DNA of 32,000 nt from Edaphobacter aggregans (GTDB taxonomy: Bacteria > Acidobacteriota > Terriglobia > Terriglobales > Acidobacteriaceae). Below, piece by piece: positions 288-13,913 of this stretch. The stretch covers positions 6,120,001-6,152,000 of the forward strand of contig NZ_RSDW01000001.1 in assembly GCF_003945235.1 (NCBI RefSeq). Direction: 5' to 3'. Positions within the stretch are counted from its first letter, which is position 1, and each line of letters begins with the position of its first letter. The notes beneath the pieces were generated by a model that was not told the DNA's origin, did no database searches, and saw nothing but the letters and a program-made list of their open reading frames with translations. The position numbers were made by a program, and so were the translations under genes.

Positions 288-1514
288 ATGGGATCATTTT
301 CAACAGCGCTGACCGGATTGCAGGCTGATACGGTCTCGCTGAATACAATCGGCAACAATCTGGCAAATCTCAACACGACGGCCTTCAAGGATCAGAGCAC
401 GACCTTTGAAGATCTTTTCTACCAACAGATGGGAACGTCTGGATCGAATAATCCGATCCAGGTCGGCGTGGGAACGAAGGTGTCCGGCACGGATACGAAC
501 TTCTTGCAGGGGACCTTGTCGACGACGGGGAATTCGGCTGACATGGCGCTACAAGGCAATGGGTTCTTCGTCGTGCAGCAGGGCAATGTTCAGTCATTGA
601 CGCGGGCCGGCAACTTTCAACTGGATCAGGTGGGAAATCTGACGACTGTAGATGGTGAGCAGGTGATGGGATATCCAGCTCCTGGCGGAGTTGTGAACAC
701 GAATGCTGGTCTGGTGCCACTGAGCGTCCCCGTAGGCGTGAATGAGGCTGCCCATGCGACACAAAACTTCTCGGTGACGGCAAATCTGGATGCCAGTGCT
801 GCCACGGGAACGCAGGTAACGAGCCCAGTAAAGGTGTATGACTCACTTGGCCAGAGTCATGAGGTTTCGGTGTCGTATACGAAGACGGGGGCGAATACAT
901 GGGATTATTCGATAACGCTTCCTGCGGGTGATGCGACGGGAACGCCGGTGAACAATACGGGGACGCTGACGTTTGATACGAATGGGAACCTGGTGTCGCC
1001 AACGGCGAACGTTGCGGGGATTACGTTTCCTGCCTTGGCGGATGGAGCGAGCGATATGACCTTCAACTGGAATCTCTACACTAACGGGAGCCCGACGATG
1101 GCACAGTCGTCGGCGGCCTCGAGCACGGCGAATACAAATCAGGATGGTTATCCGACTGGAACGTATCAGAGCTTTACGGTAGATGCCAATGGTGTGATCT
1201 CAGCGACATTCAGCAATGGTCATACCCAGGACGTTGGGCAGGTTGCAGTGGCGTCAGTTACGAACACCGAAGGCCTGGTTCTGGTCGGCAATAACAACTA
1301 CATGACGACGGCGGCCTCTGGCACAGCGACGGTCGGCGTGGCGGGCGTTGGCGGACGTGGGACGATCGAGGACTCGGCGTTGGAGCAATCGAATGTCGAT
1401 ATCTCGACAGAGTTCGCCAATCTGATCGTGGCGCAGAGAGCGTTTCAGGCGAACTCGAAGACGATGACGACGTTCGATTCGGTGGCGCAGGATACGATCG
1501 CGATGATTCGATAG
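288..1514 (+). CDS. flgE: Flagellar hook protein FlgE
   Basis: 408-aa ORF. The N-terminus (MGSFSTALTGLQA...LNTIGNNLANLNTTAFK) and C-terminus (ALEQSNVDISTEFANLIVAQRAFQANSKTMTTFD) are the conserved rod/hook family ends. A GGGAG Shine-Dalgarno lies ~7 nt upstream. Confidence 0.95.
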   Translation: MGSFSTALTGLQADTVSLNTIGNNLANLNTTAFKDQSTTFEDLFYQQMGTSGSNNPIQVGVGTKVSGTDTNFLQGTLSTTGNSADMALQGNGFFVVQQGNVQSLTRAGNFQLDQVGNLTTVDGEQVMGYPAPGGVVNTNAGLVPLSVPVGVNEAAHATQNFSVTANLDASAATGTQVTSPVKVYDSLGQSHEVSVSYTKTGANTWDYSITLPAGDATGTPVNNTGTLTFDTNGNLVSPTANVAGITFPALADGASDMTFNWNLYTNGSPTMAQSSAASSTANTNQDGYPTGTYQSFTVDANGVISATFSNGHTQDVGQVAVASVTNTEGLVLVGNNNYMTTAASGTATVGVAGVGGRGTIEDSALEQSNVDISTEFANLIVAQRAFQANSKTMTTFDSVAQDTIAMIR

Positions 1515-1656: not shown

Positions 1657-2202
1657 ATGGCTACTTCTTCTCCAGTTGTTCCAGTTAGTGGTTCTGTTGA
1701 GCCGGTAAAGCTTCCGGTTGTTTCGCTGATGGTTGCGGTCGTGGTTGGGATTGTTGTCGCGACTGCAGGAGTTAGTGGGTTTGTTTATCTTCTTGCGCGC
1801 TCGGGCCATCTCCCGATGCCTGTCGCCGCTGCCGCTAAGGCCGAGCCGTCTGGACCGAGTGCAACGCGCGCGCTAGTGTTGGATTCGCTGCTGGTCAACC
1901 TGGCGGATAGCGGTGGGAGTGCGTATCTGCGAGTGGGTATGACGCTACGGGTGGTGGATGTCGTTGAGAAAAGCGGCGCGAAAAAGGACAACAAAGCTGT
2001 CGACGAAAAGATGAGCAAAGATGTCGAGGCGGCTGTTAGGGATACGGCGTTGACGGTTCTGGGCAGACAGACTTCAGAGGGATTGCTCGCGCCAGACGGC
2101 AAAGAGAAGTTGAAGATTGAGCTGAAGGCAGCGATGGCAAAACATAATGCGGATCTGAAGATTGAGGATCTGTTCTTCACTGAGTTTCTGGTGCAGCGGT
2201 AG
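1657..2202 (+). CDS. fliL: Flagellar basal-body-associated protein FliL
   Basis: 181 aa with a single N-terminal TM segment (VVSLMVAVVVGIVVATAGVSGFVYLL). This is followed by a FliL-type core (LDSLLVNLADSGGSAYLRVGMTLRV...LFFTEFLVQ). Confidence 0.85.
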   Translation: MATSSPVVPVSGSVEPVKLPVVSLMVAVVVGIVVATAGVSGFVYLLARSGHLPMPVAAAAKAEPSGPSATRALVLDSLLVNLADSGGSAYLRVGMTLRVVDVVEKSGAKKDNKAVDEKMSKDVEAAVRDTALTVLGRQTSEGLLAPDGKEKLKIELKAAMAKHNADLKIEDLFFTEFLVQR

Positions 2203-2209
2203 GAGATTT

Positions 2210-2539
2210 ATGACGGATACGGAGCTGATTCCTCGTGATGCCGAGCTGTCGACATTGCCGGTGGGTTCGGTCAGGATGGGAACTTTGGGAATGTCGCGGA
2301 TTGAAGAACATGTGGCTTGGCCTTTGATGGCACGACTTGCGGTGAGGTTAGAGGCAGGAATTCCGCTGCCTCGGTTCAAGGTTCGCGATCTGCTGCGACT
2401 GGAAATTGACCAGGTTATCGAGAGCGAGTCGCCGGATTCGGAGGATGTTCCTCTGAAGGTCGGGCAGGTCCAGTTGGGATGGAGCGAGTTTGAAGTGGTC
2501 GAGCAGCAACTGGCTGTGCGGTTGACACGGTTGGCGTAG
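2210..2539 (+). CDS. FliN/FliY-like SpoA-domain flagellar switch protein (first of two in the cluster)
   Basis: ATG at 2210 has an AGGAGA SD overlapping the fliL stop; the track ORF begins earlier at 2162. The C-terminal ~75 aa (VRLEAGIPLPRFKVRDLLRLEIDQVIESE...VPLKVGQVQLGWSEFEVVEQQLAVRLTRLA) fit the surface-presentation-of-antigens (SpoA) pattern of FliN. Confidence 0.8.
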   Translation: MTDTELIPRDAELSTLPVGSVRMGTLGMSRIEEHVAWPLMARLAVRLEAGIPLPRFKVRDLLRLEIDQVIESESPDSEDVPLKVGQVQLGWSEFEVVEQQLAVRLTRLA

Positions 2540-2580: not shown

Positions 2581-2874
2581 ATGCAGGTTACACAAAAGAC
2601 CGAACAGACGATCGCAGAGAATGCAGGTTTGGAGTTGCAGGGGTTTGCGGGATGGTTGCTTGGCCTTGTGCGGGGTCGAAGAGGTGTGCGTCATGGACAG
2701 CAGAGGTTGATGAAAGTGGTGGAGACGCTGCCGTTGGGTGGGAAGCGTCAATTGATGCTGGTGCGCTGCGGGGAGAAGCATTTTCTTGTTGGCGGCGGGC
2801 TTGAGAGTGTTGAGACGATTGTGCGGGTTGAGGGTGGGATGTCGATCGAGAGTCAGGATGGGATATGTCTCTAG
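2581..2874 (+). CDS. fliO: Flagellar biosynthesis protein FliO (probable)
   Basis: 97 aa, positioned immediately before and overlapping fliP. It has a short hydrophobic N-terminal segment, then LPLGGKRQLMLVRCGEKHFLVGGG, which resembles the FliO core. The call rests mostly on position. Confidence 0.6.
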   Translation: MQVTQKTEQTIAENAGLELQGFAGWLLGLVRGRRGVRHGQQRLMKVVETLPLGGKRQLMLVRCGEKHFLVGGGLESVETIVRVEGGMSIESQDGICL

Positions 2875-3764
2875 GGCGTGGGCTGCGATGGTTCGCTCTG
2901 GTGGTATGGATGGTGGTGCCTCTGCCGGTGATGCTGGGCCAGCAGACGTTATTGGCGTCGTCGGCTTCTCCTGAGTCGTTTTGGGTGAAGCGGGATGCGG
3001 GTAAATCGAACGGCGTGGGTACGGGGAAAAAGGTCGCGGGGAAGGCCGGGGGCAAAGCACATTTGCACGAGTCGGCTGCCGGTCCGACTGGGAATACTGG
3101 GTTGAGCAAGAAAGACTCGATTGCGAGCGAGCTGGAGTCCAACCGGAGTACGCCGTGGTCGATTGTGGTGGGGTTGACGCTTTTGACGTTGTTGCCTGCG
3201 TTGCTGCTGTCGATGACTCCGCTGGTACGACTGTTGGTGGTGTTTCACTTTCTGCGGCAGGCGTTGGGGACGCAGACGGCGCCTTCGAATCAGGTGTTGA
3301 TGGGACTGGCGTTGATGATGACCTGGTTCCTGATGCAGCCGGTGCTGCAGGAGGTGGAGCAGAAGGCAGTCGCTCCGTATCGAGCGGGGGCGATCTCGGG
3401 TGAAGATGCGTTGGATCGCGGTGTTCAGCCGGTGAAGCAGTACATGCTGCGTTATGCGCGGGAGAAGGATCTTGCTGTATTTGCTTCAGCGGGGATGAGT
3501 GAGCGGCCAAAGACGAAGGAGGATCTTCCGATCCAGGTTGTCGTGCCGGCTTACATCCTGAGTGAGCTGAAGGCTGGATTTCAGATTGGGGCGGTTTTGT
3601 TTCTGCCGTTTCTTCTGGTGGACATTGTGGTTGCCAGCGTGACGACTTCGATCGGGATGATGCAGCTGCCGCCGGTGGTGATCTCGACGCCTTTGAAGAT
3701 TCTGCTGTTTGTGATGGTGGATGGATGGAATCTGCTGGCGGACCAGTTGATTAAGAGCTTCTAA
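2865..3764 (+). CDS. fliP: Flagellar type III export apparatus protein FliP
   Basis: The core (WSIVVGLTLLTLLPALLLSMTPLVRLLVVFHFLRQALGTQTAPSNQVLMGLALMMTWFLMQPV...) is the highly conserved FliP sequence. An N-terminal signal peptide and an unusually long linker precede it. The start overlaps fliO by 10 nt. Confidence 0.93.
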   Translation: MSLGRGLRWFALVVWMVVPLPVMLGQQTLLASSASPESFWVKRDAGKSNGVGTGKKVAGKAGGKAHLHESAAGPTGNTGLSKKDSIASELESNRSTPWSIVVGLTLLTLLPALLLSMTPLVRLLVVFHFLRQALGTQTAPSNQVLMGLALMMTWFLMQPVLQEVEQKAVAPYRAGAISGEDALDRGVQPVKQYMLRYAREKDLAVFASAGMSERPKTKEDLPIQVVVPAYILSELKAGFQIGAVLFLPFLLVDIVVASVTTSIGMMQLPPVVISTPLKILLFVMVDGWNLLADQLIKSF

Positions 3765-3788
3765 CTTTTGGGTTTTGTGGAGATGTGA

Positions 3789-4058
3789 ATGGGGCCGGAC
3801 CAGACGGTGGAGATGATGCGGAAGGTGCTGATGGAGGCGATGATGCTATCTGCTCCGCTGCTGGTTACAGCTTGCCTTGTAAGTCTTCTGGTGAGTCTGG
3901 CGCAGACGTTGACGAGTGTGCAGGAGCAGACGCTGACGGCGGTGCCTCGGCTGGTGGTTGTGTTCGGCGTCACGATGACGATCCTTCCGTGGGTGGTGCA
4001 TCGGCTGGTGAGCTTCACGCTGCATATGTTGACCGGGTTTCACAAGTACCTGGGGTAG
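3789..4058 (+). CDS. fliQ: Flagellar export apparatus protein FliQ
   Basis: 89 aa with two TM segments. The sequence ...LMLSAPLLVTACLVSLLVSLAQTLTSVQEQTLTAVPRL... is typical FliQ. A GTGGAGA SD lies upstream. Confidence 0.93.
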   Translation: MGPDQTVEMMRKVLMEAMMLSAPLLVTACLVSLLVSLAQTLTSVQEQTLTAVPRLVVVFGVTMTILPWVVHRLVSFTLHMLTGFHKYLG

Positions 4059-4063
4059 ATGGC

Positions 4064-4846
4064 ATGAATCGAGAGGCTAGCACATTGATCAACGATTGGC
4101 CGCAGTACCTGACGGCGGCGGTGCTTGTGCTGGTGCGATTGAGTGGGCTGATGGTGTTTGCGCCGTTGTTTTCTTCAGCGGCAATTGCTCCTCGGATCAA
4201 GGCTGGGTTTGTGATCGCGATGACGGTCTTGCTTGCGCCTGCTGTTGCGGCGGTTCCGAATGCGCGGGTGTCGCTGGATATGAAGGCAGTGTTGGGTGAA
4301 TTGGGTGTGGGATTGGTGTTTGGGTTGTCGCTGACGTTGCTGAATGAAGCGCTGACATTTGCTGGGGCGTTGTTGGGAATGCAGTTCAGTTTTTCGCTGG
4401 TGAATCTTATGGATCCGAACTCAAAGATCGAGACGCCCGTGTTAGGACAGATGCTGGGGTGGCTGGGGATTCTTGTACTGATCGGTGCGGGGTTGGATAG
4501 AAGTTTGCTGGCTGCTGTGGTGAGGAGCTTCTGCACTGTGCCGGTGGGACAGGCGGTGGTGCAGGCGAAGACGGGGATGGCACTGGCGATGATGGCGGGC
4601 GGGATTTTTTTGGCAGGGCTGCAGTTGGCTGCTCCGGTGATTGCAGCGGCGATGGCGGTGGAGGTGACGATTGCGTTGGTGGCTCGGCTGTCTCCGCAGT
4701 TGCCGGCGATGGTGCTGAGTGTGCCGCTGAAGACGCTGGTGTCATATGCGGTGCTTATCGGGAGTTTGGCGGTTTGGCCGGGATGGATTGAGCGGCACTT
4801 TACTGCGTTGCTGGATGTGGCGGGAAGGTTGATCGCGAACGCATGA
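4064..4846 (+). CDS. fliR: Flagellar export apparatus protein FliR
   Basis: The internal ATG at 4064 of track ORF 3785..4846 is 5 nt after the fliQ stop. It gives a polytopic membrane protein (LTAAVLVLVRLSGLMVFAPLFSS...) of FliR size and order. The upstream 93 codons of the track ORF overlap fliQ out of frame and look like Gly/Asp-rich GC shadow. Confidence 0.9.
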   Translation: MNREASTLINDWPQYLTAAVLVLVRLSGLMVFAPLFSSAAIAPRIKAGFVIAMTVLLAPAVAAVPNARVSLDMKAVLGELGVGLVFGLSLTLLNEALTFAGALLGMQFSFSLVNLMDPNSKIETPVLGQMLGWLGILVLIGAGLDRSLLAAVVRSFCTVPVGQAVVQAKTGMALAMMAGGIFLAGLQLAAPVIAAAMAVEVTIALVARLSPQLPAMVLSVPLKTLVSYAVLIGSLAVWPGWIERHFTALLDVAGRLIANA

Positions 4847-5988
4847 GCACGAAGGGGACGGAACAGGCTACTCCTGAACGAAGGAAGAAGGCGAAGGCGA
4901 AGGGCGATAGTGTTCGCAGCCGTGAGTTGCTTTCTGCGATGGCAATGCTGGGTGGTGTGGCGATGTTGGGGATTTCGGCCCATGGATTTGTTGCGGGTTG
5001 GGGCAAGGTCTATATCGAGAGCTTGCGATCTGCTGCGGTGGACGAGGTGAACGGGGATCAGGGGTGGAATGAAGCTGTGCGGCGAATGCTTGCTCCTGCG
5101 TTGCTACCGGTTGGGCTAGTTATGGCCGCGAGCTTCGGGGGTGCGCTGCTTGCGGGTGTGGCGCAGGGTGGTGGAGTGCAGGTTCATCCGAACGCGGTGG
5201 GAGTGAAGTTTTCGAAGTTGAATCCGGTTACGAATTTGGGACACCTGTTTAGTTTGCGATCGACGACACGTCTGGTGAAGTCTCTGGTGCCTGCGGCAGT
5301 GATGGTGGTGTTGGGGTGGGGAGCGCTGAAAGCGTTGATGCTGCCTATGCCGGTGATGAGTTTGATGCGGCTACCCGCTACGTTTTCGACGGCGTATGGA
5401 CTGGCGCTGGATGCGGCTTGGGTGACTCTGGCTTGGTCTGGGCTGGACTATGCGATGGAGTGGAGGAGCTGGAATGAGCGGCTGAAGATGAGCAAGCAGG
5501 AGATCCGCGATGAAGTGAAAGAGGCGATGGGAAACCCGCAGGTGAAGATGAAGATCCGCCAGATCCAGATGGCGATGCGGAAGCGCAAGGTCAAGGCGGA
5601 TATGTCGCGCGCGAGTGTGGTGATTACGAATCCGACGCACTATGCGGTGGCGCTGGAATTCAGCTTCGAAACGATGGAGGCCCCGAAGGTGCTGTGCAAG
5701 GGACGTGATCTGCATGCGGCGGAGATTCGAGAAGAGGCTCGGTGGGCTGGGATTCCGATGATAGAGAACCCTCCGTTGGCACGGAGTTTGTACAGGATGG
5801 TGGAACCAGGTCAGTCAATTCCATTTGAGCTGTATGCGACGGTTGCGGGGATTCTGGCTTATCTGTACCGGCAGAAAGTGGAGGAACGGATGCGGCGGGA
5901 ACGGCAGGCACAGTTGGTTCGACAGAGTGGAGGGCTTCGTGAGATGGCAATGGCTGGTGGAATGCGTGGATTTGGAGGTGGAATGTGA
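4843..5988 (+). CDS. flhB: Flagellar export switch protein FlhB
   Basis: 381 aa. The N-terminus is KGTEQATPERRKKAKAKGDSVRSRELLSA, and the NPTH autocleavage motif is present (VVITNPTHYAVAL). It has an ATGA overlap with fliR. Confidence 0.95.
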   Translation: MSTKGTEQATPERRKKAKAKGDSVRSRELLSAMAMLGGVAMLGISAHGFVAGWGKVYIESLRSAAVDEVNGDQGWNEAVRRMLAPALLPVGLVMAASFGGALLAGVAQGGGVQVHPNAVGVKFSKLNPVTNLGHLFSLRSTTRLVKSLVPAAVMVVLGWGALKALMLPMPVMSLMRLPATFSTAYGLALDAAWVTLAWSGLDYAMEWRSWNERLKMSKQEIRDEVKEAMGNPQVKMKIRQIQMAMRKRKVKADMSRASVVITNPTHYAVALEFSFETMEAPKVLCKGRDLHAAEIREEARWAGIPMIENPPLARSLYRMVEPGQSIPFELYATVAGILAYLYRQKVEERMRRERQAQLVRQSGGLREMAMAGGMRGFGGGM

Positions 5989-8093
5989 GTGAAGCGGTGA
6001 TGACGAAGAATGATGGGTTTTCTACTGCGAAATTGCAGAGTTTGTTGCTGCCGGTAACTGCGATCAGCATGGTGTTCGTGATGCTGATTCCGGTGCCGAG
6101 CTTTGTGCTGGATCTTTTGCTGGCTGCTTCGATTACGGCTTCGGTGATTGTGTTTCTAACGGCTGTGCAGGTGCGACGGGCGGTAGATTTCTCTGTGTTT
6201 CCTACGCTGCTCTTATTGCTGACGTTGTTCCGGCTGTCGCTGAACCTGGCTTCGAGCCGAAGAATTCTGCTGCATGGACATGAGGGGACGCATGCCGCGG
6301 GTGCGGTGATTGAGGCGTTTGGGCAGTTTGTGATCGGGGGAAACTACGTTGTTGGGTTTGTATTGTTTCTGGCGCTGATCGCGATTCAGTTTTTGGTGGT
6401 GAGTCATGGCGCGGTGCGGACGGCGGAGGTGACAGCGCGGTTCACGCTGGATGCTCTTCCTGGTAAGCAGATGGCGATCGATGCGGATATGAACGCCGGG
6501 TTGATCGATGAGCAGGGTGCACGGAAGCGTCGGCAGGCGATTGCGCGAGAGGCCGAGTTCTATGGCGCGATGGATGGTGCGGCGAAGTTCAATCAGAGGG
6601 ATTCGCTGGCGACGATTCTGATTACGGTGATCAATATTGTGGCGGGATTGTTGATTGGAGTGCTGCAGCAAGGCGCTGATCTGACTACGGCGGTGAAGAC
6701 TTACACGATTCTTACGGTTGGCGATGGCTTGGTGACGATGATTCCGAGCCTGCTGGTGTCGATTGCTGGTGGCATGGTGCTGACGCGGGCTTCTTCGGCG
6801 GGATCGCTTGATGATGAGCTGGGAACGCAGTTGCTGCGCGGGCGGAACACGCTTTGGATTGCGTGTGCTGTATTGCTTGGACTGGCTTTGATTCCGGGAT
6901 TGCCGAAGTTGTCGTTTGTGTTGATGGCGGCTGGGGTTGCGCTGATCGCGCGGAGACTGCCGACCGGGAAGAATGGGGCGGCAGCGGTAGATGAAGCTGC
7001 TCCTGGAGAGAAGGCGAAGGTGGTTGAGGTGGCGAAGAGCGAGAACCTGGCTTCGCTGCTGAAGATGGATGAGCTGACGCTGGAGATTGGATTTCAGCTG
7101 ATCTCGATGGTCGATGAGAAGCAGGGCGGGCAGATGCTGAATCGGGTTCGTGCGCTGCGACGGCATCTGGCTACGGAGCTTGGGTTCATTGTTCCGGCGG
7201 TACATATTACGGACAATCTGCGGTTGAAGCCGAGAGAGTATGTGGTGAGTCTGCGGGGAGTGGAGATTGCGCGATGGCAGACGGAGCAGAACTGTTTGCT
7301 TGCGGTAAATGCTGATCCTAAGGCTCGCGCTCTGCCGGGTGTGGAGACGCGGGAGCCGGCGTTCGGCGTGATGGCCAGGTGGATTCAGCCGGGGCTCGAG
7401 GAGCAGGCGCTTGCGGCGGGGTACTCGGTTGTAGACCAGACGACGGTGATTGGAACTCATCTTGGCGAGCTGATTCGCAGACATGCGCATGAGTTGTTGG
7501 GGCGGCAGGAGGTGAAGCGACTTCTGGACAGCATGAATGAGAGTCATCCGAAGCTGGTGGAAGAGTTGGTGCCGAAGCTGATGACGCTAGGTGAAGTGCA
7601 GCGGGTGTTACAGCAGCTCCTGCGGGAACAGGTTTCAATTCGCGACCTAGGGGCGATTCTTGAAGTGCTGGTTGAAGCGGCGCAACAGTCGAAGGATGTG
7701 GTGCATCTGGTGGAGAGCGTGCGTCAGTCGCTGGGACGTGGGTTGGTTCATCCGCTGCTAGATGGTGAAGGTGGGCTGCGCGTTCTGATGTTGGACCAGG
7801 CACTGGAGACGGAGTTGGTGCATACGTTCGATCCGCGCGGCGCTGCCTTGTTGCTTGGAGATGGAGCGCGACCAGGAGGAATGCCTGCGGATTTTCTGAG
7901 GCGGCTTGTGGAATCTGTGAAACGCCTAACCGGAGGGGCCCCGACATCGGCACTTCCCGTGCTTCTGTGTCAGAGTCCGGCGCGCTATCACGTACGGCGT
8001 TGGCTGGAGCCGTTTCTACCGAAAGTGACCGTGTTGGCACCGGCAGAGATTCCGCCGGAGATCCGGGTACGGAGTTTAGGGACGGTTGGTTGA
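5985..8093 (+). CDS. flhA: Flagellar export gate protein FlhA
   Basis: 702 aa FHIPEP-family protein (...VGFVLFLALIAIQFLVVSHGAVRTAEVTARFTLDALPGKQMAIDADMNAGLI...). The GTG start at 5985 overlaps the flhB stop; an alternative ATG lies at 6000. Confidence 0.97.
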   Translation: MSEAVMTKNDGFSTAKLQSLLLPVTAISMVFVMLIPVPSFVLDLLLAASITASVIVFLTAVQVRRAVDFSVFPTLLLLLTLFRLSLNLASSRRILLHGHEGTHAAGAVIEAFGQFVIGGNYVVGFVLFLALIAIQFLVVSHGAVRTAEVTARFTLDALPGKQMAIDADMNAGLIDEQGARKRRQAIAREAEFYGAMDGAAKFNQRDSLATILITVINIVAGLLIGVLQQGADLTTAVKTYTILTVGDGLVTMIPSLLVSIAGGMVLTRASSAGSLDDELGTQLLRGRNTLWIACAVLLGLALIPGLPKLSFVLMAAGVALIARRLPTGKNGAAAVDEAAPGEKAKVVEVAKSENLASLLKMDELTLEIGFQLISMVDEKQGGQMLNRVRALRRHLATELGFIVPAVHITDNLRLKPREYVVSLRGVEIARWQTEQNCLLAVNADPKARALPGVETREPAFGVMARWIQPGLEEQALAAGYSVVDQTTVIGTHLGELIRRHAHELLGRQEVKRLLDSMNESHPKLVEELVPKLMTLGEVQRVLQQLLREQVSIRDLGAILEVLVEAAQQSKDVVHLVESVRQSLGRGLVHPLLDGEGGLRVLMLDQALETELVHTFDPRGAALLLGDGARPGGMPADFLRRLVESVKRLTGGAPTSALPVLLCQSPARYHVRRWLEPFLPKVTVLAPAEIPPEIRVRSLGTVG

Positions 8094-8138
8094 GGTCGAT
8101 GGTTCAGACGGTGAAAGCGCAAGGATATGGAGGAAGTG

Positions 8139-9062
8139 ATGGGCTTAGGTAGTGTGGTTCCGGTGATGTTGGGGGGGGGGTCGAGGAGCGGGCTCCTTGG
8201 TGAGGAGCAGCCGGTGTTTGCTGGAGAAATGGCAAACACGTCAGGCGGATCGTTTACACCGTTTACTGGCGACGAGTCGCTTGATAGCGGCGCAGTTGAA
8301 AGCGAAGTTGCGACGGATCGGGATCTGTTGCTGATGGAGCATCTGCCGACGGTGCGGTATCTGGCGCGGAGGATCCATGAGAGGTTGCCGCAGCATGTTG
8401 ACTTGGACGATTTGATCTCGGCTGGTGTGGTGGGACTGATTGATGCGTTCTCGAAGTTCGATCACAGCAAGAAGGTGCAGTTCAAGAGCTATGCGCAGTT
8501 CAGGATTCGCGGGGCGATTCTCGATTCTCTGCGGACGCTGGACTGGAGTCCCCGGGAGCTGCGTCGGAAGGGCAGGGCCGTTGAGGAGGCTATACGGTCG
8601 GTGACGCAGCGGGTTGGGCGGGCACCATCGGAGCTGGAGATCGCCGGTGAGATGAAGCTGAGTTTGACGGAGTATCAGCAGCTGCTTGGGGACCTGAAGG
8701 GGTTGGAGATTGGCAGTCTGCATATGGAGCGGTCTGAGGAGTCGGGCGATGAGGAACTGGCTTATGTGCCGGGATCGCCTGAGGAAGATCCGTTGTTTCG
8801 CTGTTTGAAGGGCGAGATGAAGCAGCGGCTGGCGGACGCGATCGATGAGCTTCCGGAGAAGGAGCGCATGGTGCTGACGCTCTACTACTACGAAGAGCTG
8901 ACGATGAAGGAGATCGGATTGACGCTGGGCGTCGTGGAGTCTCGGGTCTCGCAGATTCATTCTTCGGCAGTGTTGCGATTGCGGACGGCGCTGGCTGATT
9001 TGCGTAAGGGTGGAGAGATCTCGAAGAAGGTGACGGGGAAGAAGAAGGTTATTGCTCGTTGA
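8139..9062 (+). CDS. fliA: Flagellar sigma-28 factor FliA (start uncertain: 8127, 8139 or 8229)
   Basis: Sigma-70 regions 2-4 are recognisable: LPTVRYLARRIHERLPQHVDLDDLISAGVVGLIDAFSKFD, then FKSYAQFRIRGAILDSLR, then LTMKEIGLTLGVVESRVSQIHSSAVLRLR. ATG 8139 has a GGAGGA SD 4 nt upstream. ATG 8229 has GGAGAA immediately upstream. The stop codon is fixed. Confidence 0.92.
   Translation: MGLGSVVPVMLGGGSRSGLLGEEQPVFAGEMANTSGGSFTPFTGDESLDSGAVESEVATDRDLLLMEHLPTVRYLARRIHERLPQHVDLDDLISAGVVGLIDAFSKFDHSKKVQFKSYAQFRIRGAILDSLRTLDWSPRELRRKGRAVEEAIRSVTQRVGRAPSELEIAGEMKLSLTEYQQLLGDLKGLEIGSLHMERSEESGDEELAYVPGSPEEDPLFRCLKGEMKQRLADAIDELPEKERMVLTLYYYEELTMKEIGLTLGVVESRVSQIHSSAVLRLRTALADLRKGGEISKKVTGKKKVIAR
8171..8180 (+). 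repeat. G10 homopolymeric tract at the 5' end of fliA
   Basis: Direct read: ...gatgtt GGGGGGGGGG tcgagg... It encodes L-G-G-G-S if fliA starts at 8127 or 8139. It lies 49 nt upstream of the alternative ATG at 8229. Confidence 0.95.
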
Positions 9063-9094
9063 GTATGAACTAAGACGGTGAAGAAGGGTGATGG

Positions 9095-10108
9095 ATGGAA
9101 AAGAATCTTTTACAGGAAGATATTGATGCGTTATTTGCGGCGGCTGGTGCGAATGCTACAGCCAAGACAAACGACAATGGCGATGCCAAGCCCCCGGAAA
9201 AATACAGCTTCAGCAATGCGGGGCAGATCAGCAACGATCAGATGCGGGCGATCAGTACGGTTAATGATTTGTTTGCTCGCAACCTGATGCACACGCTGGG
9301 TGCATGGCTTCGGATGCCACTGAAGGTGAAGTTGGTATCGGGTGAACAGCTTCCGTTCAACGAATTTCTGGAGCGGCTTTCCACCATGTCGTATATCTGT
9401 TCGGTGCGCCTGGAGCCGTTGGGAGCAGTAGGATTGCTGGAGTTGGATCTGGCCCTGGCTGCGCCTATCGTGGATGTGCTGTTGGGTGGAACCGGGCGCG
9501 CGGGACAGGTGCGCGAGCTGACGGATATCGAGGAAGCAATTCTTACGGCCGTGGTGCAGGTGGTCATGCAGGAGCTGAACCTGGCGTGGCAGCCAGTGGG
9601 ATTGGTATTCGCCTTCGAGAAGCGTGAGACGGAGGCGCAGGCGGCACGGACGATGACGCTGGGTGAGAAGACGTTGTGCGTGAGCTTCGAGGCGCGTATG
9701 CCCGAGGTGCAGGGAGTGTTGAATCTGTGTCTGCCTGCGGTGGTGTTGAATGCGATTCTGCGCAGATTGATCGCGCAAGGAGATCAGCCGCGCAGGAGGT
9801 CGAAGGACGCGCAGGCGAAGATGCGAGAGTTGGTGGGCGAGGTGAAGGTTGGTGCCGTGTTGCAGTTTCCGCCGGTGCGTTTACGCGCGGCTGAGCTGTC
9901 ATCGCTGGAACCGGGTGCAGTTCTGCGGCTGCCGTTGCCGCGATACCAGATGGCAGAGTTGCGTGTGGGTGGGTTGCAGTTTGGACGGGCTTATCCGGTG
10001 CGAACAGGAGAGCATCGCGGCGCTCAGATTGAAGGCGAGAACTGCGGATCTCTGATGAAGCTGTCTTCTGGCAATGATGTTGCTGCCGCAACGACGAGTG
10101 TGAATTGA
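9095..10108 (+). CDS. fliM: Flagellar motor switch protein FliM
   Basis: 337 aa. The N-terminal LLQEDIDALF matches the CheY-P-binding LSQxEIDALL motif. The FliM middle domain (ISTVNDLFARNLMHTLGAWLRMPLKVKLVSGEQLPFNEFLERL) and a C-terminal SpoA-like segment are present. Confidence 0.93.
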   Translation: MEKNLLQEDIDALFAAAGANATAKTNDNGDAKPPEKYSFSNAGQISNDQMRAISTVNDLFARNLMHTLGAWLRMPLKVKLVSGEQLPFNEFLERLSTMSYICSVRLEPLGAVGLLELDLALAAPIVDVLLGGTGRAGQVRELTDIEEAILTAVVQVVMQELNLAWQPVGLVFAFEKRETEAQAARTMTLGEKTLCVSFEARMPEVQGVLNLCLPAVVLNAILRRLIAQGDQPRRRSKDAQAKMRELVGEVKVGAVLQFPPVRLRAAELSSLEPGAVLRLPLPRYQMAELRVGGLQFGRAYPVRTGEHRGAQIEGENCGSLMKLSSGNDVAAATTSVN

Positions 10109-10121
10109 GAGGGAAGAAGAA

Positions 10122-10430
10122 ATGGAAAATGTTGCGGGTGCGGATGAGCCGGCTATCACGGCGGCGGCGATCGGTTTGTTGTCGGACGTCGAGCTGGATG
10201 CGACGCTGCGATTTGGCTCGCGTGAGATGGCGTTGCGCGAGGTGCTGGAACTGGGGCCGGGAGCTGTTGTTGAGCTGGACCGGCATGTCACTGAGCCAGT
10301 GGATCTGGTTGTAGGAGATCGGATTGTGGCTCGAGGTGAAGTGGTGGTGGTGAATGGCAACTTTGCGTTGCGCATTACGGAAGTGGCGACGCCGCAACTG
10401 CGGCTGGAGAGCATACGATGCCTTTTCTAG
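10122..10430 (+). CDS. fliN: Flagellar motor switch protein FliN
   Basis: 102 aa SpoA domain (VELDATLRFGSREMALREVLELGPGAVVELDRHVTEPVDLVVGDRIVARGEVVVVNGNFALRITEV), immediately after fliM. Confidence 0.9.
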   Translation: MENVAGADEPAITAAAIGLLSDVELDATLRFGSREMALREVLELGPGAVVELDRHVTEPVDLVVGDRIVARGEVVVVNGNFALRITEVATPQLRLESIRCLF

Positions 10431-11359
10431 AGAAGCATAAGAATGTTGAGGACACAGTGGTGTGGGGTGGGGGTACGTATGGTCAGGCGGGGCTTGGGCC
10501 AGGGTCGGTGGGAGTTGCGGAGCCGCGGCGGTTATGTGGGTATGCGGAGTGCTCGAGTACCTGGACGGTGCCTTGGCGGAGTCGGAAGAGGCCTGTGTTT
10601 GAGGGGCAGTGGGGTTGTGGGGGGCGGTGTGTGCTGGGGCTGGTTCGGGCGGCGGTTCAGCGGGAGTTGGGAGAGGGCTCGGTGGGGCCTCAGGCGCATC
10701 GGCATAGGGTTCCGCTTGGGCTGGTGATGCTGGCGCAGGGGTGGATTACGCATCCTCAGTTAAGGAAGGCGCTGGATGCGCAGAGGGAGAGTGGGTCGGG
10801 GCGGATCGGCGACTGGCTGGTGAGCGAGTGCGGACTTGAGGCAGAGCAGATTACGCGAGGCCTCAGTATGCAGTGGAGTTGTCCTGTGCTGCCGATGATG
10901 GGCTTCGCTCCGGAGGCAATGGCCCTGGTGATGCCGAGGGTGTTTGTGGAGGAGTTCGGACTGTTGCCGCTTCGAGTTGCCGGATCGCGGATTCTGTACC
11001 TGGCGTTTGAGGATCGGCTGGATGCCGCGGCCGCGTTGGCGATCGAGAGGATGTCAGAGTTGAAGGTGGAGAGTGGGTTGGTGGATGGGAAGGAGTTTGA
11101 GCCGGCGCGGAGACGACTGCTTGAATATGAGTCTGTGCCGGTGAAGGTTGAGGTTGCTGCGGACTCGGATGCCTTGTCGGCCCGGATTACGGCAATTCTT
11201 GAACAGAAGCAGCCTCTGGCTTCGCGGTTGGTTCGGCTGCATCAATATTACTGGCTGAGGGTCTGGCTGGAGCAGGATGCGATGAGTGTGGTTGGGAGTT
11301 TGCCGAAGAGCTCTGAAGATGTTGGCGACTTCGTCTTTACGGTTGGCGGGCTGGCTTAG
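10418..11359 (+). CDS. Uncharacterised protein: N-terminal 4-Cys cluster plus T2SSE_N/MshEN-like domain, last gene of the flagellar operon
   Basis: 313-aa ORF whose ATG overlaps the fliN 3' end by 13 nt. It carries a C40-x4-C45-x21-C67-x3-C71 cluster. Residues ~99-215 (PLGLVMLAQGWITHPQLRKALDAQ-RESGSG-RIGDWLVSECGLEAEQITRGLSMQ...LLPLRVAGSRILYLAFEDRLD) resemble the N-terminal domain of GspE/MshE-type ATPases. No ATPase domain is present. Confidence 0.6.
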   Translation: MPFLEKHKNVEDTVVWGGGTYGQAGLGPGSVGVAEPRRLCGYAECSSTWTVPWRSRKRPVFEGQWGCGGRCVLGLVRAAVQRELGEGSVGPQAHRHRVPLGLVMLAQGWITHPQLRKALDAQRESGSGRIGDWLVSECGLEAEQITRGLSMQWSCPVLPMMGFAPEAMALVMPRVFVEEFGLLPLRVAGSRILYLAFEDRLDAAAALAIERMSELKVESGLVDGKEFEPARRRLLEYESVPVKVEVAADSDALSARITAILEQKQPLASRLVRLHQYYWLRVWLEQDAMSVVGSLPKSSEDVGDFVFTVGGLA

Positions 11360-11390
11360 GGTTTGCCAGCTACAGAGGCCTAACACCGAT

Positions 11391-11412
11391 TTCACCGATC
11401 AAGGCCGGTGAA
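11391..11412. terminator. Short hairpin between convergent genes (possible bidirectional terminator)
   Basis: TTCACCG (11391-11397) pairs with CGGTGAA (11406-11412) across an 8-nt loop. There is no flanking T-run, so support is weak. Confidence 0.3.
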
Positions 11413-11439
11413 CGCCAAGGGCATTGAAACATCGGCTTA

Positions 11440-11847
11440 TTACTGGGAGAAGGTGGGTGTGTCGGAGGGGTTGGCAGCTCGGAAGGCCGGGGAACTAGCG
11501 GTTGGTTGAGCGTCCTGGTGGGGGCCGAGGCCGAGTTTGATGATGGCGCGGGAGTCGGGCATCAGCTTGGTTTGCCAACCATTGTCAGACTGGAATTTTT
11601 GCATCGCGGCCTCGGTTTGGGAGTCCCAATGACCGCTAGCTTGGCCGGAAAGGTAGCCGGATTTGATGAGGGCTGTCTGAATTTCAGTGGCGCGGTTATC
11701 GTCGATTGCGCGCTGGCCGGTGTGCTTAGGGGCTGGCTTAGTGTGCTTGGGAGAGGTCGGACCACGACGGGCGTGGGAAAACGCGACGCAGGGAATCGCA
11801 GTTGCAACGAGCAGCGCAGAGCTTAGGAGGAGTCTGACAGATTTCAT
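11440..11847 (-). CDS. Secreted peptidoglycan-binding-domain protein
   Basis: 135 aa with a signal peptide (MKSVRLLLSSALLVATAIPCVAFS). A PG_binding_1-like segment follows (EIQTALIKSGYLSGQASGHWDSQTEAAMQKFQSDNGW). Confidence 0.75.
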   Translation of the reverse strand: MKSVRLLLSSALLVATAIPCVAFSHARRGPTSPKHTKPAPKHTGQRAIDDNRATEIQTALIKSGYLSGQASGHWDSQTEAAMQKFQSDNGWQTKLMPDSRAIIKLGLGPHQDAQPTASSPAFRAANPSDTPTFSQ

Positions 11848-12204
11848 AGAAAATTCAGCGCCTCGAGTTGCAGTATCGAACAGAACATGTACCGTCCCTG
11901 CTGAACTCGTGGTTAGGGTATCCCGAGAGTTACCAGTATGGCAACAACAAAGATTGGACGTACTGGTACGGCTTTTGGGTGAGTCTTGCTTACTTTTATT
12001 CTACCTGTTGGGTAGGCCAAAGCATTGATCGGGGCGGTGTTATTGGCGAGGATTTTACTGTTGTTCACGTGGGTGCGGCATGTTCGATAAATAGCTTGCG
12101 AAAGAAGTCTAGGAGCTAAAGCCCTTATTATTAACGGCTTATTCCGCAGAGTTAAAGCCCAGCGCTCACCGTCCGCAGGACAGAGCCAAGCTACAGTAGA
12201 TGTG

Positions 12205-12254: not shown

Positions 12255-13913
12255 CTACGGGAGAGTTCCGCCTACGTAGGAGTTGCCACTGTTTTTCTGC
12301 TGGGGATAGTGGACGACGAAGACGACGTCGTCTTTGGATTTAAGGGCGGAGACGATAGCCTTGTAATCGGCCTCGTTGGTTACGGGCTTTTTGTTGATTT
12401 CAGTGATGATAGCGCCCTTGACGAGGTTGATCTCGTCGGCAAAGGAGCCAGGCCGAACGGTGGTGACCAGGACACCGCCCTTGGTGCCGGTTTTGGTAGC
12501 AATCTGGGGCGGGACGGCCGAGACGGTGATGCCGAGTTTGTTCTGGCCGGCGTCTTCCTCTTGCGGTGCGGCGTTGTCGTCGTTGTCTCCAGCGAGATCG
12601 GAGTAAGTCTTGGCTCGGTCGCCGATCGCGACGTTAGCTGTTTCCTGTTTGCCGTTGCGGAGGTAGCCGAGTTTGACCATGGTGCCAACGTGACGGGCGG
12701 AGATGTCGGCTACGAGGTCGTCGCCATCTTTAATATTGCGGCCGTCAATCGAGACAATGACGTCACCAGGTTGAAGGCCAGCTTTAGCAGCGCCGCCGTT
12801 AGGAGTGACGGTGGAGACCATGACTCCGTTGGTGAAGCCGTACATACGGCCGACCGCGGAGCTGAGGGCAGGCTGGAAGCTGATGCCGATGGAGCCGCGA
12901 ACGACCTTGTGCTCGGGCCCGATGAGCATGTTGTAAACAGAGGCGATGGTGTTGGCCGGCATGGCGAAGCCGACACCCTGCGAGCCCATGGACTGGGTGT
13001 AGATGGCGGTGTTCATGCCGACGACGTTACCGGCCATATCCACGAGCGGCCCGCCGGAGTTGCCGGGGTTGATGGCGGCGTCGGTCTGGATGAAGCGCTG
13101 GAACTGGCTCTGCGAGACGCCGTTGGGGCCGGGTTCATCGATGGAGCGGTTTTTGGCGGAGATGATGCCGGCGGTGACGGTCTTGGAGAGGGCGAAGGGG
13201 CTGCCGATGGCGAGGACCCAGTCACCGACCTGTGCGCTGTCGGAGTTGCCGAGCTTGACGGTGGGCAGGGGTTCCTTGGAGTCGATCTTGATGACGGCGA
13301 TATCGGTGTCTTTGTCGACGCCGACTACGTGGGCCGGACGGCCTTCTTCGCCTGGCGCGCCACCGTCAGGATCGGTGGAGAGGCGGACGAAGATCTTGTC
13401 GGCCTTATCGACGACGTGATTGTTGGTGATGATGTAGCCGCGCGAGTCAACGATGAAGCCGGAGCCGAGGGCTTTGCGCTCGCCCCCGAAGCCGCCGTCG
13501 TCGTCACCGTCGCCACCCTGGCCGCCGAAGAAGCGATTGAAAAAGTCCTGCATGTCGCCGGGCTGCTGCTGGTCGTCATCGTTCCCGCCCTGCGGAGCGC
13601 GCTGACCGCGATGGTTTTTCTTGACGGCGGACTGCTTGGGCAGGGAGTCGGTGGTGATGTTGACCACGGCGGGACCGACCTGTTTGACGATCTGCGAAAA
13701 ACCATTCGAAAGAGTGACGGGCGAAGGGATAACGAGAGGCTTTGCGTCGGATGAGTCGACTGTGGCCTGTTCCTTGCCGCTGACGCCGTGGGTGAGAACG
13801 GAGCCGACGAGTATGCCGACAGAGAGCGTCGCGAGCAAGGTGAAGGTGGTAGCAAGGCGGCGGCCGCGGATGCGATCCAGCAGGCTCGGAGAAGTGCGTA
13901 TCGGTGTATCCAT
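12255..13913 (-). CDS. htrA: Periplasmic serine endoprotease HtrA/DegP/DegQ family (trypsin domain plus two PDZ domains)
   Basis: 552 aa with an N-terminal TM/signal segment. The motifs FFNRFFGG, catalytic GNSGGPLV and ITNNHVV are present, followed by two PDZ-like segments (LQPGDVIVSIDGRNI and GAIITEINKKPV). Confidence 0.95.
   Translation of the reverse strand: MDTPIRTSPSLLDRIRGRRLATTFTLLATLSVGILVGSVLTHGVSGKEQATVDSSDAKPLVIPSPVTLSNGFSQIVKQVGPAVVNITTDSLPKQSAVKKNHRGQRAPQGGNDDDQQQPGDMQDFFNRFFGGQGGDGDDDGGFGGERKALGSGFIVDSRGYIITNNHVVDKADKIFVRLSTDPDGGAPGEEGRPAHVVGVDKDTDIAVIKIDSKEPLPTVKLGNSDSAQVGDWVLAIGSPFALSKTVTAGIISAKNRSIDEPGPNGVSQSQFQRFIQTDAAINPGNSGGPLVDMAGNVVGMNTAIYTQSMGSQGVGFAMPANTIASVYNMLIGPEHKVVRGSIGISFQPALSSAVGRMYGFTNGVMVSTVTPNGGAAKAGLQPGDVIVSIDGRNIKDGDDLVADISARHVGTMVKLGYLRNGKQETANVAIGDRAKTYSDLAGDNDDNAAPQEEDAGQNKLGITVSAVPPQIATKTGTKGGVLVTTVRPGSFADEINLVKGAIITEINKKPVTNEADYKAIVSALKSKDDVVFVVHYPQQKNSGNSYVGGTLP

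Follow-up and report, generated by a model that had tools for sequence, protein, structure and literature searches.

The flagellar operon of Edaphobacter aggregans ends in a gene for a protein of 313 amino acids (aa), here called X, and the question raised by this locus is what such a protein does next to the genes of the flagellar switch. The gene lies in a stretch of 32,000 nucleotides (nt) of contig NZ_RSDW01000001.1 (assembly GCF_003945235.1, positions 6,120,001 to 6,152,000 of the forward strand), which is referred to as the window. A first-pass annotation, made from the letters of this stretch, had proposed that X carries an MshEN-type module for binding cyclic di-GMP (c-di-GMP). From sequence comparisons and structural models, we concluded that X is best read as a receptor for c-di-GMP that resides in the cytoplasm and serves specifically the flagellar system of Terriglobia, and we would put the probability that it senses c-di-GMP and acts as an effector within the flagellar regulon at roughly 0.62.

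The known routes from c-di-GMP to flagella run through PilZ proteins, FleQ, FliI, CheY-like Cle proteins, degenerate EAL proteins and RsiG. If true, an MshEN receptor in a flagellar operon would add a further route to these, with a new output architecture made of a zinc finger and a C-terminal domain marked by a WLR motif. Terriglobia are among the most abundant groups of soil bacteria, and the control of their passage from motility to sessility is essentially unstudied. Several carriers of X are in culture, namely Edaphobacter modestus DSM 18101 and strains of Tunturibacter/Tunturiibacter and Granulicella.

X carries a full MshEN domain

Residues 97–235 of X form a genuine and full MshEN domain, composed of the four-helix MshEN_N and the MshEN_C subdomain. 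The NCBIfam model NF053729 ('c-di-GMP motif, MshE-related') aligned with residues 99–152 over 53 of its 53 positions (E = 1.4e-9), and the same model was matched by all 55 diverse relatives of X (E up to 1e-3, best E 2.3e-14). The best match region among the full-protein models of NCBIfam was the C-terminal MshEN region of NfrB (X 94–222 to NfrB 479–604; E = 2e-10), and the N-terminus of PilB matched at E = 1e-6. Some relatives of X already carry a precomputed assignment to the Pfam family MshEN (PF05157). A family profile made from 55 diverse relatives, which was run with hmmsearch against the PDB, retrieved the Vibrio cholerae MshEN domain (5htl; E = 1.7e-17, X 94–217 to MshE 6–129), the N-domains of Geobacter PilB (6olj/5tsg; E = 1e-23) and the GSPII domains of Thermus PilF (6f8l; E = 2.1e-38). 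By HHalign, residues 100–239 of X aligned to residues 4–141 of a PilB alignment with a probability of 98.4% (E = 6.6e-15).

The AlphaFold2 (AF2) model of X, built on the family alignment (predicted local distance difference test, pLDDT, 88.6; predicted template modelling score, pTM, 0.83), has helices at residues 100–107, 112–125, 130–138 and 142–152, followed by strands and helices over residues 183–235. When this model was compared with the PDB by Foldseek, the best matches were two c-di-GMP-bound structures, 8pdk (PilF GSPII-B) and 5htl (MshEN), at E of ∼6e-8; the superpositions gave template modelling (TM) scores of 0.76–0.77 over ∼140 columns. The tandem motifs that the first-pass annotation had recognized at residues 99–122 and 129–152 (nt 10712–10873) are thus borne out by profile searches, predicted fold and, as described below, conservation of the contact residues; its residue and nucleotide coordinates were all correct, and the superposition on an MshEN–c-di-GMP complex, which it had named as a check, agrees with its reading.

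Motifs, profile homology and fold all place X in MshEN, and only the curated single-sequence cutoffs are missed. We regard these sub-cutoff scores as near misses of thresholds set for single sequences; they are no argument against homology. As had been noticed earlier, no secretion ATPase domain follows: the T2SSE ATPase domain (PF00437) was absent from X in the Pfam search, and the protein ends at residue 313. Because there is no PF00437 and the HHalign match does not extend beyond PilB residue 141, X is not a member of the MshE/PilB/GspE ATPases.

The c-di-GMP contact residues are conserved throughout the family

The MshEN motif consists of two tandem copies of a 24-residue pattern, RLGxx(L/V/I)(L/V/I)xxG(L/V/I)(L/V/I)xxxxLxxxLxxQ, in which R1, L2, G3, L17, L21 and Q24 contact the ligand (Wang et al., PMC5013675). 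In X, these positions are occupied by P99, L100, G101, L115, L119 and Q122 in motif 1 and by R129, I130, G131, I145, L149 and Q152 in motif 2, a fit to the consensus at 11 of the 12 contact positions, with Pro99 as the exception.

We counted the conservation of these contacts in 331 sequences of the family, which are 23–95% identical to X of the window. Each of the 12 positions is 93–100% conserved, the Pro at position 1 of motif 1 being counted as one of them. G131 and Q152 are invariant (331/331). In motif 1, G101 and L115 are each kept in 328 sequences, Q122 in 324, and L100 and L119 in at least 93%; in motif 2, L149 is kept in 322, and 325 have R or K at position 129. The Pro at position 1 of motif 1 was found in 307 of the 331 sequences (49/55 in the smaller set), and R97, two residues before it, in 326. 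The relaxed pattern of Wang et al., [RKPN]hG..., permits a Pro at this position (PMC5013675). Moreover, motif 1 of Escherichia coli NfrB, a protein that binds c-di-GMP specifically (PMC8669469), starts with R488-P489-L490-G491, and a position-1 Pro is common to NfrB and the X family. Judged from these counts, the ligand-contact residues of X are under strong purifying selection, and X apparently carries an intact c-di-GMP-binding module, as far as sequence and model can tell.

X is encoded with flagellar switch and regulatory genes

In the window, X is the last gene of the order flgE-fliL-fliN′-fliOPQR-flhBA-fliA-fliM-fliN-X. Its open reading frame (ORF) starts 13 nt inside the 3′ end of fliN, exactly as first annotated, with a Shine–Dalgarno-like GGAGAG 6 nt 5′ of the ATG; from this arrangement, the junction is read as translational coupling. 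Tight junctions of the same style had been noticed at fliR/flhB and flhB/flhA, and the 4-nt overlaps there are both real. A promoter/terminator scan of positions 7900–12000 gave zero sites, which agrees, weakly, with a single transcript. Residues 1–38 of X vary across the family, and disorder is predicted for them. The very N-terminus, the invariant MPFL (M-P-F/V/L-L across ∼42 loci), shares its bases with the last four codons of FliN (..R-C-L-F-stop, 10418–10430), and since the same bases encode the FliN end, conservation here may reflect a dual-frame constraint and not the function of X.

More than 1,166 members of the X family are present in a 90%-clustered database, the top 120 of them being full-length and 61–92% identical, and a 50%-clustered library has 166 clusters of it at E < 1e-30. 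Every taxonomically labelled member is from Terriglobia (Acidobacteriota), the named carriers being Edaphobacter, Granulicella, Tunturibacter, Terracidiphilus, Acidipila and Acidisarcina. The members are annotated as 'hypothetical protein' or 'T2SSE N-terminal domain', and the next matches outside the family are PilB ATPases.

Synteny was sampled at 68 loci of GTDB species representatives (locus numbers are prefixed L). We observed that fliN lies immediately 5′ of X in 63 of these, that fliA is also upstream in 57, most with the full flhB-flhA-fliA-fliM-fliN-X order, and that the 13-nt fliN/X overlap is identical in at least 42. Even in a deep branch labelled 'Terriglobia bacterium', where identity is down to 27–36%, the flagellar synteny persists. 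The membership of X in the flagellar operon, which the first-pass annotation had inferred, is supported by these counts, and so is the presence of a conserved homolog after fliN in Terriglobia. The link to the switch genes that the annotation assumed fits the fliN-X loci, but in the clade described below X follows a sigma gene without fliM or fliN.

Five loci lack fliN upstream of X (L044, L056, L058, L059 and L064). At L044 only 68 nt of upstream sequence are available, too short for an assessment, and at L056 and L064 no flagellar structural gene lies by X. Wherever the end of the operon is assessable, X is the terminal gene of a flagellar-regulator and/or switch-protein operon, with L058 as the clear exception.

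An orthologous GGEEF diguanylate cyclase gene stands divergent beside the X operon at five loci of a deep-branching sub-clade (L054, L058, L059, L062 and L064). The cyclase is a multi-pass membrane protein with an intact GGEEF, 44–63% identical between loci and located at ∼2.2–5.6 kb in locus coordinates, and the operons linked to it usually begin with an OmpR-type response regulator. It diverges from response regulator-fliM-fliN-X at L054 and L062. At L059 the GGDEF gene diverges from an OmpR-type response regulator followed by X, with flagellar-type regulators beside X, and at L058 from X-flgG-flgA-flgH-flgI, where X is the first gene of an operon for rod and ring proteins. At L064, where it diverges from response regulator-X, the cyclase was recovered in three aligned pieces and is possibly disrupted.

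A separate clade (L069–L072 and L074; named member Acidipila sp. EB88), sister to the fliN-X clade of Acidobacteriaceae, has the order OmpR-type response regulator, sigma-54 activator, FliA/WhiG sigma factor, X. Here X lies 48–126 nt 3′ of the sigma gene, with no fliM or fliN between them. The sigma factor scores 220–239 bits with FliA_WhiG (cutoff 189.6) and shares 52% identity with the FliA of the window. The genes of this operon occupy ∼2.4–9 kb in locus coordinates, with lexA divergent upstream, and a convergent RES-Xre toxin-antitoxin pair comes directly after X at L069–L072 and two genes further at L074. No flagellar structural gene was found within ±8 kb of these operons, and no protein of the large contigs of this clade was among the top 120 matches of an Acidipila-type fliN-X query. 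The opposite arrangement also occurs: L003 and L007 have REC-fliM-fliN-X with no fliA upstream (tblastn/ORF listing), and L054, L062 and L073 have fliM/fliN-X without fliA (tblastn or gene calls). L073, the most divergent member, reads REC, sigma-54 activator fragment, fliM, fliN, X.

A predicted zinc finger and a family-specific domain flank MshEN

The N-terminal cysteine cluster that had been noticed at nt 10535–10630 as a possible zinc site has the spacing C40-x4-C45-x21-C67-x3-C71, and 4/21/3 is the commonest spacing in the family. C67 and C71 are present in 55/55 relatives, C45 in 54 and C40 in 47, and each Cys is retained in 317–326 of the 331 sequences. In the AF2 model, a hairpin (60–65) is followed by a helix (69–85) that begins at the second Cys pair, a geometry consistent with a predicted zinc finger. 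When 10 diverse segments of the finger were searched against Pfam at E up to 10, nothing rose above noise (best NinG, E ∼0.09), and all PDB sequence matches of the family profile to this region were weaker than E 0.2. The finger may resemble the FCS/TRASH-type C-x19-22-C-x3-C fingers, a tentative lead only, and no Pfam family matches it.

The region after MshEN had been annotated as ∼100 aa without assignment; we find it to be shorter, ∼78 aa (236–313), as MshEN_C reaches to ∼235. W279 and R281, which form the 'WLR' motif, are kept in 55/55 sequences. A separate AF2 model of this domain (pLDDT 84) gave, by Foldseek against the PDB, a best E of 0.08 and only a generic beta-alpha-beta-beta-beta likeness. 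The possibility that it is the segment that follows MshEN in PilB was ruled out, as the HHalign match to PilB does not extend there. It is presumed to be an output or partner-binding domain. Among longer homologs of X (P0123, P0125, P0128, P0137, P0280 and P0300), examined as a Rosetta-stone check, no extra recognisable domain was found.

A model for c-di-GMP sensing by X, and its possible targets

We propose that, when c-di-GMP is high, one molecule would be clamped between the two 24-residue motifs of X. Clamping would reorient the four-helix bundle with respect to the rest of the protein, namely the Cys4 zinc finger and the WLR C-terminal domain, and this movement may alter the contact of X with a flagellar partner. 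The net outcome would be that swimming is shut down. The output of X must be an interaction with protein or nucleic acid.

Within this effector model, our tentative preference for the target goes to the FliM/FliN C-ring, upon which X would act as a post-translational brake or as an assembly block made alongside FliN. The C-ring is favoured because the fliN junction is conserved and fliM-fliN-X is retained where fliA is absent. Sigma-28 (FliA) would be nearly as likely a target, and neither of the two is more likely than not; sigma-28 is favoured by the fliA-X clade, with its purely regulatory operon, and by the RsiG-WhiG precedent. Since X follows fliA without fliM/fliN in that clade, the partner may be sigma-28 instead of the switch complex.

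Several observations weigh against the effector model or against the choice of its target. The guanine-stacking Arg of V. cholerae MshE is a Pro in the X family. The spacer between the motifs is 6 aa and not 5 (6 aa in 47 of 55 relatives, 5 aa in 5 of 55), and in motif 2 the Gly of the turn is shifted by one residue, at a position where, among 55 relatives, 22 have a Cys and 6 a Gly. All three deviations had been pointed out by the first-pass annotation and are real; the Pro and the 6-residue spacer are family-wide and the motif 2 turn is variable. X scores 37.6 bits with NF053729, for which the cutoff is 38. The match to Pfam MshEN covers residues 165–233, the second subdomain, and at 18.3 bits it falls under the cutoff of 23.1. 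Certain MshEN-type domains are protein adaptors that are blind to the ligand, such as XpsE (PMC5013675) and the PilB N-domain of Xanthomonas. Neither of the extra domains of X has a match to a known fold, there are no informative fusions, and an output partner is not indicated by either. The synteny breaks both ways, to fliA-X without fliM/fliN and to fliM/fliN-X without fliA. Finally, the mirror-tree partial correlations of X with FliA, FliM and FliN (38 loci, FlhA controlled) are 0.61–0.71 and do not separate the targets, because the value for FlhB, 0.66, falls inside the same range.

Alternative explanations

The alternative that survives best is a sub-case of the effector model, in which c-di-GMP arms X as an anti-sigma factor against FliA, or X modulates FliA directly in some other way; we consider it possible, with the odds against it. 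Anti-sigma genes typically sit after the gene of their cognate sigma factor, and X is placed in this way right after the sigma gene in the fliA-X clade, whose sigma factor passes the FliA_WhiG cutoff. In addition, fliA is co-oriented in the same cluster at the 57 loci mentioned above, and X and FliA are proposed to be made from the same mRNA. A c-di-GMP-binding anti-sigma factor is also known for a sigma factor of the sigma-28 family (PMC7005675, PMC8325347, PMC12871210). Against this stand the five loci without fliA upstream (L003, L007, L054, L062 and L073) and the fact that the most conserved junction of X is with fliN and not with fliA. The anti-sigma domains FlgM, RsiG and ZAS are absent from X in Pfam at E up to 10, and NCBIfam likewise gave no FlgM or RsiG family match. 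Nor does the mirror-tree value for FliA (0.66) exceed the one for FliN (0.71).

In its strictest form, this alternative would have X serve Terriglobia as their anti-sigma-28 factor or as a partner switch dependent on c-di-GMP, which sequesters FliA only when loaded with c-di-GMP. We think this unlikely, about one chance in four. The operon of the Acidipila-like clade, with response regulator, sigma-54 activator, FliA and X, would then be the minimal form of such a system. If the anti-sigma reading were true, X would directly control the flagellar late genes, and an anti-sigma switch armed by c-di-GMP would, strikingly, have arisen a second time, by convergence on an unrelated fold.

It is also conceivable, but rather improbable, that the MshEN domain of X is a nucleotide-free fold and that X is a ligand-independent flagellar scaffold or adaptor working through protein contacts, like the N-domain of XpsE or the N-domain of Xanthomonas PilB, which binds PilZ. 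The scores below the curated cutoffs, the Arg-to-Pro change, the displaced Gly and the longer spacer would all fit this explanation, and the ligand-blind structures 7lko and 2d28 are among the structural matches of X. However, the positions whose change cost XpsE its binding, G3, L17, L21 and Q24 (Wang et al., PMC5013675), are just those that are 93–100% conserved in the X family. The best structural matches are c-di-GMP-bound forms, the position-1 Pro occurs also in the c-di-GMP-binding NfrB, and a diguanylate cyclase gene adjoins the X operon at five loci.

That X is a passenger gene, or the decayed N-terminus of a pilus or type II secretion ATPase (PilB/GspE) with no flagellar role, is suggested by its nearest relatives outside the family, which are PilB-type ATPases, yet is highly improbable given that full-length X is kept in more than 1,000 sequences with family-specific domains and invariant residues, that flagellar synteny holds across deep Terriglobia lineages to 27% identity, and that the gene is followed by a convergent peptidoglycan-binding gene instead of an ATPase fragment.

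Comparison with known c-di-GMP receptors and MshEN proteins

In our comparisons, X represents a sensor module of a known kind, which here has a new architecture and is placed in a new cellular system. It shares the fold, the tandem motifs and the contact residues with MshE of V. cholerae (5HTL) and PilF GSPII-B of Thermus thermophilus (8PDK). Those proteins have an ATPase domain, whereas in X a Cys4 finger precedes the MshEN domain and a novel domain of 78 aa follows it at the C-terminus. Motif 1 of the MshE type begins with Arg and is followed by a 5-residue spacer; that of X begins with Pro and is followed by 6 residues. The gene of X is in a flagellar operon, in contrast to genes of the MshE/PilF type, which are in pil, msh or gsp operons. 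E. coli NfrB, a c-di-GMP-activated glycosyltransferase, demonstrates that an MshEN domain can drive an output other than an ATPase (PMC8669469), and it shares with X an R-P-L-G-type start of motif 1. However, NfrB is a membrane glycosyltransferase, and X has neither an enzymatic domain nor a transmembrane segment. The Xanthomonas PilB-N/PilZ complex (7LKO) and the N-domain of XpsE (2D28) have the same fold as X (Foldseek E 1e-6 to 1e-4) and present this fold as a platform for protein docking; unlike X, they are degenerate at the c-di-GMP contacts.

YcgR, FlgZ and MotI/DgrA are small cytoplasmic c-di-GMP receptors of the PilZ type, which belong to the flagellar regulon and act on the motor; the PilZ domain is marked by RxxxR and (D/N)xSxxG motifs. 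The job proposed for X is alike, by functional analogy, but the fold predicted to take up the ligand is not related to theirs: searches of Pfam (E up to 10) and NCBIfam gave no match of X to a PilZ or YcgR family. Unlike the PilZ brakes, X is translationally coupled to fliN, as read from its junction.

The RsiG-WhiG pair of Actinomycetota resembles the fliA-X clade in that a c-di-GMP-binding protein (for X, a predicted one) is encoded with a sigma factor of the FliA/WhiG family. RsiG is a coiled coil that binds a c-di-GMP dimer through a repeated motif of its own (PMC7005675, PMC8325347). X, in contrast, has an MshEN domain, for which binding of a single c-di-GMP in extended form is predicted, and its AF2 model is globular and not a coiled coil. 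The WhiG1 factors encoded in flagellar clusters are not regulated by RsiG (PMC12871210).

The first-pass annotation knew of no description of an MshEN solution to flagellar control, and in the literature searched we found no paper on a flagellar-operon MshEN protein or on the three-domain architecture of X. The papers retrieved for MshEN together with flagella treat NfrB or PilZ proteins or are reviews. The supplement of Wang et al. (PMC5013675) has no Acidobacteria and no flagellar-operon MshEN protein, and the genome papers on Acidobacteria and Acidipila EB88 are silent on flagella.

Features of the flagellar cluster

The coordinates of X, its domains and its neighbours are collected in Table 1.

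Table 1. Features of X and of the surrounding flagellar cluster (positions in nt of the window)
Feature	Position	Strand	Remarks
flgE	288-1514	+	
fliL	1657-2202	+	
second FliN-like SpoA gene	2162-2539	+	125 aa; FliMN_C/SpoA domain, E 4e-10
fliO	2581-2874	+	
fliP	2865-3764	+	
fliQ	3789-4058	+	89 aa; Bac_export_3, E 5e-22
fliR	to 4846	+	
flhB	4843-5988	+	
flhA	5985-8093	+	
fliA (sigma-28)	8127-9062	+	TIGR02479 FliA_WhiG, 252 bits (cutoff 189.6)
fliM	9095-10108	+	Pfam FliM, E 5.9e-39
fliN (C-ring protein, SpoA domain)	10122-10430	+	Pfam FliMN_C, E 2.3e-24
X/fliN junction	10406-10430	+	GGAGAG 10406-10411; X ATG 10418; fliN stop codon 10428-10430; 13-nt overlap
gene X	10418-11359	+	313 aa, ATG start; Cys4 finger, MshEN domain and C-terminal domain
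Cys4 finger C40/C45/C67/C71	10535-10672	+	basic loop WRSRKRP, helix 69-85; treble-clef-like, zinc predicted
MshEN motif 1	10712-10783	+	residues 99-122, PLGLVMLAQGWITHPQLRKALDAQ; NF053729 alignment
six-residue spacer RESGSG	10784-10801	+	between the two motifs
MshEN motif 2	10802-10873	+	residues 129-152, RIGDWLVSECGLEAEQITRGLSMQ
MshEN_C subdomain	10880-11122	+	residues 155-235, beta-beta-alpha-beta-alpha; Pfam, HHalign, Foldseek
C-terminal domain	11123-11356	+	residues 236-313, ∼78 aa, beta-alpha-beta-beta...beta; W279 and R281 invariant
peptidoglycan-binding-domain gene	11440-11847	-	small secreted protein; convergent, closes the flagellar cluster

The second FliN-like gene holds the canonical slot after fliL, and the 'main' fliM-fliN pair sits after fliA; the cluster therefore encodes two switch proteins with a SpoA domain. 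In lineages other than Edaphobacter (L027–L046 and L047–L067), the matches to FliM and FliN are 500–650 nt apart, and the 'FliN' product of L073 has 296 aa; the gap and the length of this product suggest either a FliN of extended, FliY-like length or an additional gene.

In the window (5985–9062), flhA is followed directly by fliA, without flhF/flhG (placement genes of the MinD/SRP type) between them. This order differs from that of many polar flagellates and is kept in related Acidobacteriaceae loci. The mechanically called 353-aa 'fliR' ORF (3785–4846) is over-extended, as fliQ occupies another frame in this region. The true start of fliR is probably near 4068, because the FliR domain begins at about residue 110 of the 353-aa ORF. 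A gene for an HtrA/DegP-type protease (12255–13913, minus strand) and the peptidoglycan-binding gene are both convergent to the flagellar operon, and the position of this pair is conserved in nearly all of L001–L026, and also at L028 and L068.

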